In this document: piece after piece, positions 47,473-63,908 of the stretch | How the letters are laid out: each line of letters opens with the position of its first letter | How positions within the stretch are numbered: the stretch's first letter is position 1 | Origin: Euglena gracilis | Lineage: Eukaryota | Direction of reading: 5' to 3' | NCBI GenBank assembly: GCA_039621445.1 | Contig: CP154954.1 | Span: 17,204,589-17,268,588, forward strand | Length of the DNA: 64,000 nucleotides | Position numbers and translations under genes: made by a program | Notes under the pieces: model-generated | Told to the model about the DNA's origin: nothing | Seen by the model: only the letters and a program-made list of their open reading frames with translations | The model's database searches: none

Positions 47473-47718
47473 TCACTTCTCCCGGAAGTGGAACACGCCG
47501 TCCCACGGCCGGTCGGCCTGCGCGTGCTCCAGCTGGGCGGCCAGGGTCAGGGCGTCGCTTCACAACCCCCCTGGGGTTTGGGTTGGTTGCCGGCTGGCTG
47601 GCGGGCCGGGGGTGGGGCCTTCCAACGGAAGCGACATCCGGGCCAGGGCGGCCCACGCCTTGTCTGGCGGGTCGAGCAGCTGGTTGGCCGCCAGCAGCTG
47701 CCGCGCCCGCTGCGGGTC
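47473..47718 (-). CDS. Adenylate cyclase last two exons (47718-47645 and 47542-47473), split by a 102-nt nonconventional intron
   Basis: [47 protein letters not shown]. Intron ends GTCGCTTC/GAAGCGAC are complementary. Confidence 0.82.
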
Positions 47719-50700
47719 CCAAGCAGCCCGCCGCGCCGGTGTTTGGGGTCCCAGAAAACGGGCTGCCTCCCAGAAAACGGGGCGGTTCCCCTGAATGGCA
47801 CGCTGCTGCTACCCCCCCCCATCCCTTGGCCTGGTCCTTTTTAAAACCCACGGGTGGAGGGTGGTGGGCGAACCACCACCCACTCACTTCTGAGGTGATT
47901 TGGGGTCTTCTGTTTTTGCTTTTTGGCACTTTGCAACAAAAATCCAGGATTTATTTTTTTTAAAAAAAAATCGAGTTTAAATGTGTGCTTCACACCAGCA
48001 CCTTAGTCCATAAAATGCACTATCCTGACAGAATTTATTGACCTTCTCAGACATCTGCACAACACCTCCGCTTTGTGGACGTCTTCCATTCTGCTCTTGT
48101 CCCAAAAAAATCCCTGTTGTTAAGGTTTTAAATTTTAAATGAGCTTTGGTCCACTTATGCAGTTGAAAACACAAAGCATTAGAATGATTGGTGCGTGCAA
48201 TTGTGCACACCAACCACCCAAAAACACTGGGACTGTTTGTGGGGACAGAGTCCAGCACCACAGCGCCAGTGAGCGATAACAGCAGCGCATCTCTATGGTT
48301 GGGGGGTGTACGACGCCCCCCCCCCCCCCAGTCGGGGGTTGCAGGAACCCGGTCGTTGGACAGGGGGGGGGCGGGTAAGCATTTTTGTGTCGGTGTGCGC
48401 TAATAAACACACCGACTCAAACCGTTTGAGTTTTTTTATTTGAATTGCAGGTTTTTGATTTGCTTGTGACACGCTGGCCCTCAGATTTTCGCAAATTTAC
48501 AGTGGTGACACCTGGGGGGCAATGGTGCAAATTTGGTGTTTTTGACCCACCGAAACACATCGCCGAGTCGTGAGGCGCTGGGACTGACCTCCCCGAACTG
48601 AATTTACCAAAGAAAAAAATGAAACCCCCACTCCCCCCCATTTCCATTTCTGCGTGACAACTGCCATAGCCAGATAGGCGTTATGTCATCATACCAGGTA
48701 CTGCATGCCTGCAACCCCCGACCGGGGATGGCCGTACCACTGGGGGCCAAAACAAAACCAAAAGCCAAAAAAGGTGCAATTTCATAACAGTGGAGGTTGC
48801 CACCGGCGCCTCTCAGTATGGAGGTCAGAATGGGCGGTATCCCGTGGTACAATACACATGACGGGACAATGACACAAACACGGGAAAAAGCTGGTCGACA
48901 AGCACATGAGAGGTAAAAAAAATGGGTTTTTTTGTGGTCACCTGCAACCCCTGACCGGGGGCGGGGGGTGGTCGTACACCCCCCCAACCTGCAACCCCCG
49001 GCCGGGGGGTGGTCGGTATATAGGGGTGGTCGGTGGACAAGGGGGGGGGGGCGGGTAAGAACGAGATCCGCTGCCAAAAGACAACTTAGAATTGATTGCA
49101 TGGCTTCATTCAATGTTGATTCAATGGAGGTAAAATATGGACGATTTAACAAGGATTGCAAATGGTGACAGGATACTTCTGAATTGGAAGTCTGCGACGT
49201 GCTGGTGGCCGGCCACCGTAGCAGTGTACGCCTCCTCGTACCGGGCTGCAGACTGCAGCAGCGCCGTGCGGTCCACCTGTGTCCAGTGGTACGCCACCTG
49301 GCCAGAGGCAGGCCGGGGGCTTTCTGCTCACACCAACCCACTGGGTTGCCAGCTGATGCAACGTGCAACGTTTGAAATATTGCACCAGAGTTGCGTCGAG
49401 GACTCCAGGATTGAAGTTCAGGTCTAAAAAAGGACACTGACGAGGAGAACGTTGATTGAAGCTCATTTTCGGCGCTACCCTCAAATTTGATTCAGGGTAA
49501 TGGGAGACCCAAACTGCCAATTTGGAACCTCAGCCCCACTCACTAAACCCACAATGCATTGCTTCCTCCCTCGTCTATGTGCTGGGCGGTTCTCAGCATC
49601 TTCTTTTGGAAGGCGAGTTTCAGGAAGCCCCGTTTTTCGCAAACTCTGCCACCTCCCCAGAAATTTTCAGCTGACAGATTGGACAGTCCCAGGGGCAAAT
49701 ACCTCTCATGACAGGTTGGCTGGCACCGGGGACCCTGAAAATTTACGGCAGGTGGGGCCCTGACAGGTTCTCGCTAATGCCTGGAACGGACCGTTTGCAC
49801 AACGGTGGAAATGGTCTGTTTGCACTCAACAAATCTTTCTGAAGTCAAAGGTCATGGGTATGCTGAATACGTAAATCTAGGTGCCACTTATTGTATTGAA
49901 GGGGAAAAAAACGGCACCTTTGTGCAATTGCGCAAAAGAACAAGCCAACTACGTGTCAAGATGATGGGCTACCCAACCTGGGAGGGGTAAGATACTGCTC
50001 AAATACTTAGAGGTTGCAGAAACTCCTGAAGCGTGATCTGGGGGAACCGTGGTTTTGCCAGTCAGAAACAGGTCTGTCCCCGGCCGTGGGTGGGGCTGCA
50101 CAACTCCAGGCTTGTGCCCACAGTTTTGGCCAGGAACCACTGTTGCACCTTGAGACATATTGGCCAACGGAAATGTCCGCCGTCAAACACCCACCCACTG
50201 AAACCATGCCCAAGAGCACAACCCTGTGGGAGAGAAGGTCGGCATTTGGGTGAATGGGGACTGGTGACAAATTGGCACACACACACACACACACACACAC
50301 ACACACACGCGCGCGCGCGCGCGCACACACACACACGCACACACACACACACACACGCACGCACACACGCATACACACACACACACACACGCACACGCAC
50401 ACGCACACGCACACGCACACGCACACCCACCACCCACACCCACCCACCCACCCACCCACACACGCACGCACGCACGCACGCACGCACACACACACACACA
50501 CACACACACACACACAAATGCCCAACGAATGGCCTTTTGAATTCCAGTATGACACTTCAAGGAAATTAAATTTGAAATGAAAATTTATATATATATATCT
50601 CTCTCTCTCTCTCTCTCTCTCTCTCTGAAAAGAACCTGATGGAAAGGTGTGGTTAAGAGGTGTCTGCAGAAACAGTGGCTGCTGAGACAAACTCCAAATG

Positions 50701-62700: not shown

Positions 62701-63908
62701 CACTCTTGTTGAGAAGTATTCTCGTTTGCCGTGTTTCCCATGTATTTTTCAAGGTTTGATGAAATTATTCTCTCAAAAAGTGTTGCAGACTCCTGACTCT
62801 GCCGTTTTCAGTCATATTTGGCATATTTGGGTCAAAGAATCATTTTTTCGAATTTCTGAAAAAAAGAGGGGAATGAGAGTAAACGTTGGCGCTGTGAAGA
62901 ACAGTTTCTGGGACCCAAGACACCGCTCAGGTCGTTGTACAACCAACACTCTTTCTGCATTCTGCATTGGCGTTGCATATTTTCCATAAATTTCTCTTTT
63001 CATCATCGTTTCTGTTGATCAAAGAAAGGCAAAAAGAAATACATGTCAATCCAAGATCTTACTTTTATGGTCATGGGCATGAGATTTTAAATTTACATGC
63101 AGACATTCTTTGCCTTCTTTTCGAACGAACAGATGATGAGAGAGAAACTCATGGGAAATGTGCGGCAGGATGCAGAAAGAGAGTATGATGAACTGTTAAA
63201 ATGGTGCACAGACGGCATGCACACCCACCACAACCAAGATTTCTCCGAGATGTCACTCATGGTCCCTCCGCCTTGCAGGTCACCAGCATTAGTTGCATGT
63301 CTATCCCCAGGTGTGCTAATATTTATTTGATTTATTTGTTTATTAAATTTGTTCAGTTTCAATTATAAAAAGTTTCTCCTATTTTGGATTTTTAATGTTG
63401 ACATCTTTTATATTATTTTATGCAATTTTTATTTCCTTTTGTTTATCAACATTTTTTCTTCTGTATTTTCTTTTTTATCTATTTTGATTTTGATTTTCCT
63501 TTTTCAAAAAATCTTTCATTCCGTTCAATGTATTCAAGGGTGACAACTTCCCAGGGTGAGGAGGTTTTGTGCATGTATACCACACAGGGGCGAATACATG
63601 TTCAAATCCGGTTAGGGAGAATAAAAGCACCAGAAAAGAGAAAACAATAAACAAACAATAGCCCATCAAAAAAATGCTAAAAATCAAAATAGTTTTAAGA
63701 ATCCTAAAATTCTAAAAATAGAGAGAGAACAGAGTGAATGAAAAGAACAAATGTTTGTCCTTGCGAGAAAGCGACCTCCCTCGAGGCTTTCAGGACGTGC
63801 TTGACCCTGCGGAAACCCGTCCAACTGGCTCCGCAATTCATCGCTGAGGGTTGCTGCCGCTATATTGATTGTTAACAGTATCCACGTCCCGTTCTGGGCG
63901 GGAAACCC
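47473..63908 (-). CDS. Receptor-type class III adenylate cyclase, spliced and 5'-partial: extracellular sensor, TM, HAMP-like linker, cyclase, C-terminal tail
   Basis: Hand-spliced exons (minus): ~63908-63807, 61449-61402, 61028-~60869, ~60664-60578, 60301-60192, 59207-59112, 58557-58405, 57516-57480, 57168-~57055, ~56568-56515, 55965-55888, 54838-54740, 54448-54404, [exon(s) not found], 49303-49208, 47718-47645, 47542-47473 (TGA). Joined protein contains [59 protein letters not shown] and ends [10 protein letters not shown]. Phases are consistent at the resolved junctions. Confidence 0.9.
49208..49303 (-). CDS. Adenylate cyclase exon (C-terminal tail)
   Basis: [32 protein letters not shown]. 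Following intron CAC-CAGCACGTCGC pairs with GCGGCGGGCTG-CTTGG before 47718. Confidence 0.75.
52175..53600. other. Poly-A then poly-C low-complexity tract, probable sequencing/assembly artefact
   Basis: Nearly pure C for ~600 nt, with almost no G on the + strand and no periodicity. Confidence 0.65.
54404..54448 (-). CDS. Adenylate cyclase exon
   Basis: [15 protein letters not shown] (45 nt), bounded by CTG-AGCCC| and |GGC-CAG. Confidence 0.9.
54740..54838 (-). CDS. Adenylate cyclase exon
   Basis: [33 protein letters not shown] (99 nt). Confidence 0.92.
55181..55484. mobile_element. MITE-like element with (GGGGTAT)n arrays, intronic
   Basis: Perfect 20-bp inverted repeat ATGGCACAAAGTGGGGCCCC / GGGGCCCCACTTTGTGCCAT enclosing two heptamer arrays. 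Confidence 0.72.
55888..55965 (-). CDS. Adenylate cyclase exon
   Basis: [26 protein letters not shown] (78 nt). Confidence 0.9.
56515..56568 (-). CDS. Adenylate cyclase exon (substrate Lys, second metal Asp)
   Basis: [18 protein letters not shown]. Confidence 0.92.
57055..57168 (-). CDS. Adenylate cyclase exon (first metal-binding Asp)
   Basis: [37 protein letters not shown]; 3' border ambiguous by a few nt. Confidence 0.92.
57480..57516 (-). CDS. Adenylate cyclase 37-nt micro-exon
   Basis: (L)[12 protein letters not shown]. Flanked by GGCTG-GCTTT| and |AAA-CAGGCG, which pair with the neighbouring intron ends; restores the frame. Confidence 0.85.
58405..58557 (-). CDS. Adenylate cyclase exon (HAMP-like linker/S-helix)
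   Basis: [50 protein letters not shown](L). Confidence 0.9.
59112..59207 (-). CDS. Adenylate cyclase exon (transmembrane helix)
   Basis: (T)[31 protein letters not shown](G); 96 nt, in phase with both neighbours. Confidence 0.85.
59310..59415 (-). repeat. MITE family C fragment (empty-site version), intronic
   Basis: Reverse complement joins ~8705-8765 directly to ~9415-9475. Confidence 0.8.
60869..61028 (-). CDS. Adenylate cyclase exon (extracellular region)
   Basis: [53 protein letters not shown], within ORF 60642-61166. Borders approximate. Confidence 0.75.
63807..63908 (-). CDS. Adenylate cyclase exon (extracellular region)
   Basis: [33 protein letters not shown]. Following intron start GGT-CAAGCACGTCCTGAAA pairs with TTTCGGGGCGGTCTTG before the 61449 exon ([16 protein letters not shown]). 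Confidence 0.7.

Follow-up and report, generated by a model that had tools for sequence, protein, structure and literature searches.

Nonconventional introns with paired ends in a receptor-type adenylate cyclase gene of Euglena gracilis

Introduction

Which kind of intron separates the coding pieces of a gene when no intron can be cut at GT and AG, and what brings the two ends of such an intron together? The question is raised by the minus strand of a 64,000-nucleotide (nt) stretch of the Euglena gracilis genome (assembly GCA_039621445.1, contig CP154954.1, positions 17,204,589 to 17,268,588; hereafter the window, numbered from its first letter), where short coding pieces, the frame changing between them, occupy positions 47473-63907. 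A first-pass annotation of the bare letters had described a host gene built almost entirely from nonconventional, end-paired introns. We conclude with high confidence that an expressed receptor-type adenylate cyclase gene of E. gracilis lies here with its 3' two thirds, and that all its introns in the window belong to the euglenid nonconventional type. For this part of the gene the word "almost" can be dropped, all 16 complete introns being of that kind.

The class itself is in print. Nomura et al. (2025) reported that nonconventional introns make up 71.8% of the introns of E. agilis and a similar share in E. gracilis, and that 84.4% of introns are 'slidable' (PMC12501133). Gao et al. (2024) identified 16,151 nonconventional introns among 28,337 in E. 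gracilis, with the same consensus and terminal pairing (PMC11170887); the two sources place the nonconventional share of Euglena introns at 57-72%. CAG at +4, +5, +6 and CTG at -8, -7, -6 is the published register (PMC11282704, PMC3935182, PMC12501133), and the first-pass statement that pairing of +4..+6 with -8..-6 defines the euglenid introns matches PMC11282704 and PMC12501133.

Knock-in mutagenesis in E. gracilis defined the code 5'-N3-CDG ... CH'G-N5-6|R(exon)-3'. It asks for CAG and CTG with a 5' spacer of 3 nt, for additional pairing and for a following exon that opens with a purine; the end of the donor exon carries no nucleotide requirement. At the 3' side a spacer of 5 nt is needed, 6 are tolerated and 4 are poor. 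Natural CGG-CCG and CGG-CTG introns splice, and among compensated changes of the middle position CTG-CAG alone worked. The code was present in 61.2% of the nonconventional introns of E. agilis, with 38.8% outside it (all PMC12501133). According to the published genetics, splicing needs the helix, its core and its spacers, and these are enough in synthetic 50-nt introns. The Discussion of PMC12501133 states the trans-acting factors as unknown, in line with the first-pass remark on the splicing machinery. Excision as full-length circles without a lariat form, later than that of conventional introns, has been reported (PMC11282704), and repeats resembling target-site duplications (TSDs), together with a hypothesis of origin from miniature inverted-repeat transposable elements (MITEs), are also in print (PMC3935182, PMC11282704). 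A literature search on the receptor-type adenylate cyclase of E. gracilis found nothing on the introns of this gene.

Results

The host gene encodes a receptor-type adenylate cyclase

The translation of a 55-amino-acid (aa) exon, used as query, returned 33 longer protein matches, all but one with PF00211 and nearly all from Euglena transcriptomes. The top match (96% identity) was EG_transcript_1461 (P0003, eukprot, 813 aa), a naming that is E. gracilis usage (PMC6366073). A single class III cyclase domain, PF00211, spans residues 502-677 of P0003 (E 3.6e-21, 76 bits vs the cutoff of 21.9). Exact 5-mer chains and tblastn placed its residues 238-813 on 18 minus-strand exons, most of them 100% identical and with three residue differences in total, which bears out the euglenid placement made in the first-pass annotation. 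The gene portion runs from 63907 to 47473 with the stop codon at 47475-47473, and its 5' third (the first 237 residues) lies beyond the window end. The product also matches GGOE01-series transcript proteins. The family of P0003 is reported as strongly expanded in E. gracilis (PMC6366073); the gene is one expressed member of a large paralogue family.

Intron borders and end pairing

The exon/intron map was based on a protein-to-genome alignment, with every donor/acceptor pair reproducing P0003 enumerated between neighbouring exons. The alignment yielded 16 complete introns of 102-2357 nt and three incomplete ones (numbered as in the map below), with 2-9 equivalent protein-consistent junctions per complete intron. 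The interval 63806..47543 is bounded by the outer ends of the first and the last complete intron. No GT..AG or GC..AG option was found in any of the 16 when every equivalent cut was checked, and conventional U2-type or U12-type borders (GT/GC-AG or AT-AC) occurred in 0/16 under any equivalent cut. The three incomplete introns likewise have no GT or AG at whichever end is present.

The null for the pairing tests consisted of pseudo-introns taken from both strands of the window and matched to the real ones in length and in how many slides were allowed. With G-U allowed, positions +4..+6 paired with -8..-6 in 12/16 introns vs 2.47 expected (P 5.8e-8), and with Watson-Crick pairs only in 11/16 vs 0.82 (P 5.7e-12); in the other four the helix was displaced by one position or its third pair was mismatched or bulged. 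The full published code N3-CDG/CH'G-N5-6|R was found in nine introns (0.07 expected, P 3.1e-18) and, minus the purine rule, in ten (0.15 expected, P 7.8e-18). A scan of all spacer pairs had its maximum at 3 (5') and 5 (3'), and three of the four non-slidable introns, where there is no choice of cut, stand at spacers 3/5. The first-pass claim of introns without GT-AG borders and with paired ends was confirmed in this set. In most introns the base of the helix is set off from the 5' border by 3 nt and from the 3' border by 5 nt, or by 4 or 6 in some, and its core is usually CAG/CTG or CGG/CCG.

Folding of the intron ends, which the first-pass annotation had proposed, gave strong partner-specific helices in all 16. 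The 20+20 nt end duplexes ranged from -12.6 to -25.9 kcal/mol, with a median of -17.4 vs -6.2 for random ends (P 2.5e-11) and -8.6 for GC-matched ends (P 1e-10). Mismatched partners within the gene averaged -12.8 kcal/mol and 0/20,000 partner shuffles attained the observed mean; the end helices are therefore intron-specific and consist of more than a common CAG/CTG.

The borders also bear on the idea that the spliceosome, perhaps modified, removes these introns and that the end helix merely juxtaposes two non-consensus splice sites. We regard it as unlikely. Noncanonical introns of other species are removed in spliceosome-dependent or -independent ways, and for Euglena experiments are said to be needed (PMC11170887); the dependent cases speak for the idea, as does the GT start of I4 and I11. 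Against it, a 3' AG is present in none of the 16 introns and no equivalent cut is GT-AG. The published strict need for the 3-nt 5' spacer and the helix core, with the donor exon end left free (PMC12501133), and the report of full-length circles without a lariat form (PMC11282704) also argue against a spliceosomal route.

RNA evidence for intron removal

The stretch 55960-63950, fixed beforehand so as to avoid long repeats, was mapped with two RNA raw-read runs (X21 and X24), a contig run confined to exons (X1, presumed RNA) and a DNA run (X20); RNA runs were taken by species label and reads were accepted from 95% identity. All nine introns wholly inside the stretch had joints at the predicted places, to the base, each in 8-23 reads of X21, 1-9 reads of X24 and contigs of X1, three runs from three studies. 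Mapping with non-canonical junctions allowed, another proposal of the first-pass annotation, thus joined 9/9 testable introns as predicted. No contig of the DNA run X20 carried any of these nine joints. The 'both' values of the joints (2, 0, 1, 0, 0, 0, 2, 4, 1) equalled the nucleotide-level sliding computed from the genome. RNA covered the exons, and its depth in the introns was about zero except in repeats. First mates of the stranded run X24 fall on the plus strand in exons, consistent with a minus-sense RNA. In total, removal is supported by read joints for nine introns, by a loose read end for a tenth (I10) and by the transcript-derived protein for the other six. No backward joints were seen among the 15 of 34 joints listed, in libraries without circle enrichment.

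The particular introns named in the first-pass annotation fared well. Those at 59111-58558 and 60577-60302 are exact by RNA joints without sliding ('both' = 0), and 57479-57169 is one of five equivalent ways to place an RNA joint with a 311-nt gap ('both' = 4). For 54739-54449 and 47644-47543 the support is at the protein level: each is one of the junctions that reproduce P0003, of which there are 5 and 9, respectively. For the last one the intron is right and the slide is not, since at 47644-47543 the positions +4..+6/-8..-6 do not pair fully; pairing is complete at 47647-47546, and 47643-47542 gives a fit in which the spacer is 6 nt.

Such junctions might in principle be artefacts, made by misassembly of transcripts or by reverse-transcriptase template switching where hairpins or direct repeats occur. 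Template switching would be favoured by border direct repeats of at least 1 nt, present in 9/16 introns, and by the hairpin-forming ends of all 16. Seven introns have no repeat, though, and the repeat excess is not significant (P 0.058). A single open reading frame (ORF) is kept over all 16 junctions and has matches in conserved paralogues and in transcripts of Euglena longa type; the junctions are identical in the three runs of three studies; and the intron RNA depth near zero means that unspliced template is not abundant. As knock-in genetics also shows genuine splicing of this intron class (PMC12501133), we hold an artefact to be hardly conceivable.

Additional RNA 'joints' were seen at 56544-57111 and 57153-58405 (for instance 56551>57055 with letters between, and 57153>58405), in the most conserved cyclase exons. 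Alternative splicing was set aside as their source; they were read as partly aligning transcripts of paralogous cyclase genes.

Exon and intron map

All features below are on the minus strand (-). A joint is an RNA-read joint, duplex is the energy of the 20+20 nt end duplex in kcal/mol, and protein-level means the P0003 alignment without reads.

63908..64000 (-): intron I0, incomplete, last 93 nt; last two bases CG, not AG
63807..63907 (-): exon aa 238-270; P0003 and RNA reads; the loose read end at 63907 (19 reads of X21, 6 of X24, and X1) encodes the P0003 residues directly before aa 238
61450..63806 (-): intron I1, 2357 nt; 3 cuts (63807-63805); CAA/TTG, N3/N5 spacers, next exon G; off the published code; joint 61448>63806 in 23 reads of X21, 9 of X24 and an X1 contig, 0 in the DNA run; duplex -18.9
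61403..61449 (-): exon aa 271-286; P0003 and RNA reads
61030..61402 (-): intron I2, 373 nt, non-slidable; AC..GT; CAG +4..+6 / TTG -7..-5 (G-U), 4-nt 3' spacer; 5-bp helix beyond a bulge; minimum free energy (MFE) fold pairs (+4,-5)(+5,-6)(+6,-7); joint 61029>61403 ('both' = 0) in 19 reads of X21, 6 of X24; duplex -16.0
60869..61029 (-): exon aa 287-339; P0003 and RNA reads
60664..60868 (-): intron I3, 205 nt, 2 cuts; CAG/GTG, standard register, a G-G mismatch after two pairs and 6 bp beyond it; joint 60663>60869 in 12 reads of X21, 6 of X24; duplex -17.4
60578..60663 (-): exon aa 340-368; P0003 and RNA reads
60302..60577 (-): intron I4, 276 nt, non-slidable; GT..AC; CGG/CCG, N3/N5, next exon A; fits the code; joint 60301>60578 ('both' = 0) in 10 reads of X21, 3 of X24; duplex -22.7
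60192..60301 (-): exon aa 369-405; P0003 and RNA reads
59208..60191 (-): intron I5, 984 nt, non-slidable; AG..GG; CGG/CCG, N3/N5|G, 10-bp helix; fits the code; joint 59207>60192 in 8 reads of X21, 3 of X24; duplex -19.2
59112..59207 (-): exon aa 406-437; P0003 and RNA reads; appears hydrophobic and membrane-helix-like by eye, without a predictor
58558..59111 (-): intron I6, 554 nt, non-slidable; GC..CC; CAG/CTG, N3/N5|A; fits the code; joint 58557>59112 ('both' = 0) in 11 reads of X21, 2 of X24; duplex -22.6
58405..58557 (-): exon aa 438-488; P0003 and RNA reads
57517..58404 (-): intron I7, 888 nt, 3 cuts; CAG/CTG, N3/N5|G; fits the code; joint 57515>58404 in 12 reads of X21, 1 of X24; duplex -20.6
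57480..57516 (-): exon aa 489-500; P0003 and RNA reads
57169..57479 (-): intron I8, 311 nt, 5 cuts; CAG/CTG, N3/N5|A, 6-bp helix; fits the code; joint 57167>57479 in 15 reads of X21, 2 of X24; duplex -14.0
57055..57168 (-): exon aa 501-538, in which the cyclase domain begins; P0003, RNA reads and Pfam
56566..57054 (-): intron I9, 489 nt, 2 cuts; CC..CC; 6-bp helix, CTG/CAG core, spacers N3/N4 or N4/N3; off the code; joint 56565>57055 in 10 reads of X21, 2 of X24; duplex -16.1
56515..56565 (-): exon aa 539-555; P0003 and RNA reads
55966..56514 (-): intron I10, 549 nt, 3 cuts; standard-register helix, AGC/GCT at +4..+6/-8..-6 and CAG/CTG one position further out; protein and a loose end at 56514 running into the next exon (85 reads of X21, paralogues mixed in); duplex -25.9, the strongest of the set
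55888..55965 (-): exon aa 556-581; P0003
54839..55887 (-): intron I11, 1049 nt; GT..CC; CAG/CTG, N3/N5, next exon T; long microsatellites inside; protein-level, alternative cut 55888-54840 also possible; duplex -13.5
54740..54838 (-): exon aa 582-615; P0003
54449..54739 (-): intron I12, 291 nt; CAG/CTG, N3/N5|G, 8-bp helix; fits the code; protein-level; duplex -17.0
54404..54448 (-): exon aa 616-629; P0003
52050..54403 (-): stretch expected to hold the exons for aa 630-689; begins with a non-GT intron end, N3 and then CAG at 54400-54398; at its other side an incomplete intron ends at 52050 or 52051, last two bases TG or AT, not AG
51949..52049 (-): exon aa 690-723; P0003
50126..51948 (-): intron I14, 1823 nt, 3 cuts; CGG/CTG (G-U), N3/N5|A; fits the code; protein-level; duplex -12.6
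50092..50125 (-): exon aa 724-734; P0003
49304..50091 (-): intron I15, 788 nt; pairs +4/-6 and +5/-7 in register, +6 bulged, then an 8-bp G+C helix; off the code; protein-level; duplex -21.1
49208..49303 (-): exon aa 735-766; P0003
47719..49207 (-): intron I16, 1489 nt; CAG/CTG, N3/N5|G; fits the code; protein-level; duplex -17.4
47644..47718 (-): exon aa 767-791; P0003
47542..47643 (-): intron I17, 102 nt; CGG/CTG, N3/N6|G at the cut given; an 8-nt direct repeat gives 9 equivalent cuts (47648-47640); protein-level; duplex -17.4
47473..47541 (-): last exon, aa 792-813 and stop; P0003

Introns outside the published code

The first-pass annotation had noted compensating pairs in place of CAG/CTG and suggested that recognition is of the stem more than of the sequence. 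The pairs exist: CGG/CCG, already published as functional, is found in two introns, and I1 with CAA/TTG is spliced, as its 23 joint reads in X21 indicate. The suggestion is supported in part: CGG/CCG and CGG/CTG, present here in two introns each, are variants published as functional; mutagenesis adds limits of sequence, with some compensated pairs only being tolerated at the middle position (PMC12501133).

Several points weigh against the overall interpretation of the locus. Six of the 16 introns are off the published code (I1, I2, I3, I9, I10 and I15): the core of I1 is CAA/TTG, the 3' spacer of I2 and I9 is 4 nt (I9 with a CTG/CAG core), I3 has the G-G mismatch at the third pair, I15 the bulged +6, and in I10 the core is displaced by one position. 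The core of I11 fits the code, but a pyrimidine opens its next exon. The whole-intron MFE folds of I6, I9 and I12 lack the end helix (3/13). The junctions of I11-I17 were taken solely from the transcript-derived protein, and the possible cuts of I11, I15 and I16 differ in nucleotides and were chosen by register fit, which favours the hypothesis. The copy in the window is without the exons for aa 630-689 and has the three residue differences, so some reads may come from an allele or near-identical paralogue. Finally, the present evidence concerns the introns and their RNA joints and has no bearing on the trans-acting machinery or on circles.

Whole-intron MFE folds were computed for 13 introns, the three longer than 1100 nt being left out; an end-to-end helix appeared in ten, seven of these in the +4/-6 register. 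Because three introns were not folded and 3/13 folds lack the end helix, the helix claim is based on the duplex analysis and not on the MFE folds. The off-code introns I1, I2, I3 and I9 are yet cleanly removed, with read joints and no intron depth, and the off-code share (6/16) is close to the published 38.8%. With the code present in 61.2% of such introns, partial agreement of this kind is to be expected of members of the wider class. By plain arithmetic from the duplex values, the mean duplex energy is -17.7 kcal/mol for the ten introns with a code core vs -19.2 for the six off-code ones. We do not claim on these values that stronger helices offset off-code cores, the energy difference being too small.

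Missing exons and the possibility of a silent copy

The cyclase domain has its C-terminal third (from aa 630) missing from the window assembly. No trace of the 60 residues aa 630-689 was found in the window by an exact 5-mer scan or by low-stringency tblastn. At their expected place the minus strand carries a 1175-nt near-homopolymer G run (53573-52399), followed by a T-rich run of about 220 nt (52398-52177); this block looks like an assembly fault.

The same block could instead mark the window copy as a damaged or silent paralogue, the transcripts coming from a near-identical locus elsewhere. The 60 absent codons and the three residue differences from EG_transcript_1461 fit such a view, as does the size of the family (33 matches) and the finding that, of reads accepted from 95% identity, only 130 of 303 in X21 are at least 99% alike. 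Most reads, however, carry the window letter at variant sites, for example 16/23 at 58428 and 18/23 at 58455 (X21), the X1 contig pieces match the exons with 0 other letters, and a 1175-nt homopolymer with a T-rich run resembles an assembly fault more than biology. We consider a silent copy improbable, and even if true it would leave the intron type unchanged.

At the exonic positions 56524, 58428, 58455, 60231, 60260 and 63819 some RNA reads, and mostly DNA contigs too, carry another letter. Together with the three residue differences, these variants point to alleles or near-identical paralogues of the cyclase gene.

Repeats and other features of the window

The introns of the gene share no repeat family: self-BLAST of 47400-64000 vs the window gave five hits, none linking two introns of the gene. 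Border direct repeats did not stand out as a transposon footprint, their mean of 1.56 nt vs 0.85 in pseudo-introns being not significant (P 0.058) and driven by I17.

In the DNA run X20 the word depth was 278,679 at 58630-58896 (I6) and 148,223 at 59164-59430 (I5) vs about 45 elsewhere; the two introns carry very high-copy dispersed repeats, that of I5 near 59305-59374. A 58-nt piece of I5 (59305-59362) recurs in the window at 9419-9476 and 8560-8615. Intron I16 contains a 50-nt inverted repeat pair (48297-48345 / 48941-48989, 88% identity), the second arm of which resembles 1093-1197. Microsatellite arrays at 2300-3700, 12800-13700, 50276-50516 and 55622-55858 give long spurious ORFs on both strands.

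Other ORFs of the window, at about 21300-31600 (plus strand), 18859-19635 (plus) and 37020-38327 (minus), match RVT_1 three times, RT_RNaseH and a Tf2-type SH3 with a chromodomain. By these predicted domains they belong to a Ty3/gypsy-like chromovirus. The ORF 25734-26357, just upstream, scores 35 bits (cutoff 28.1) with PF05869, the family of Dam-type N6-adenine methyltransferases, and in the ORF 26569-27732 a cytosine-methyltransferase-like motif was seen by eye, unconfirmed by Pfam.

Discussion

The introns of the cyclase gene agree with the euglenid nonconventional introns (PMC12501133; consensus PMC3935182) in the absence of GT/C-AG borders, the end helix and the +4..+6/-8..-6 register. 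They agree further in the CAG/CTG, CGG/CCG and CGG/CTG cores, the slidable borders, the euglenid host and the precise removal. There is no difference of kind; six of the 16 are off the strict code and one more lacks the exon-start purine. Euglenid 'intermediate' introns, with a GT or GC 5' end and nonconventional features (PMC4770533, PMC3935182), share the GT start with I4 (GT..AC) and I11 (GT..CC), both of which also carry the end helix, and with one cut of I1; the present introns, by contrast, end without a 3' AG, and some GT starts among 16 are expected by chance. Whether 'intermediate' introns form a distinct type is a question posed in PMC4770533. The noncanonical introns of diplonemids (PMC12621601), a sister euglenozoan lineage, are also abundant and non-GT-AG; the host is another one.

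The MITE-like 'introners' (PMC11282704) resemble these introns in their terminal inverted repeats, comparable to the end helix, and in short TSD-like border repeats, 8 nt long in I17. Unlike introners, no two introns here have a sequence in common, and the direct-repeat excess is not significant; there is therefore no pointer to one recently active element family. One further idea, held more weakly than the looser code considered below, is that this cyclase family had no introns in the ancestor shared with kinetoplastids and that nonconventional introns alone colonised it.

Helix, core and spacers are the cis signal that fixes both cut sites; this is taken from the published genetics. How the signal is used may be pictured as follows. 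A dedicated, probably non-spliceosomal machinery would dock on the end helix and measure fixed distances from its base. It would then cut the single-stranded flanks, ligate the exons and free the intron as a circle. We weigh this picture as a whole roughly equally for and against. Archaeal and tRNA bulge-helix-bulge introns are spliced by an endonuclease and a ligase and are released as circles. As in the picture drawn here, they have the cut set by distance from a helix, no border consensus and a circular product; the likeness is one of analogy, not of membership. By that analogy an endonuclease/ligase logic like that of tRNA introns might apply in Euglena, in even balance with a specialised spliceosome.

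The phenomenon is ordinary and already described, the class, its register, the CGG/CCG and CGG/CTG variants and the genome-wide abundance all being in print. If introns were independent, the per-gene probability that all 16 are nonconventional would be about 0.005 (0.718^16) or about 1e-4 (0.57^16). Independence is doubtful, however, and the genes of Euglena number in the tens of thousands; a gene with only nonconventional introns is unremarkable. The locus illustrates a known peculiarity cleanly and with read support, and the excision enzyme is not addressable from it.

Its practical value is small: 16 natural introns in one transcript, six of them off-code, are suited to the existing knock-in assay. 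As a tentative suggestion, which we think possible though on the doubtful side, the machinery may judge the geometry of the helix less strictly than the 2025 code implies, with long intron-specific helices offsetting a weak core. If this looser reading were true, the cyclase gene would offer a ready natural test panel.

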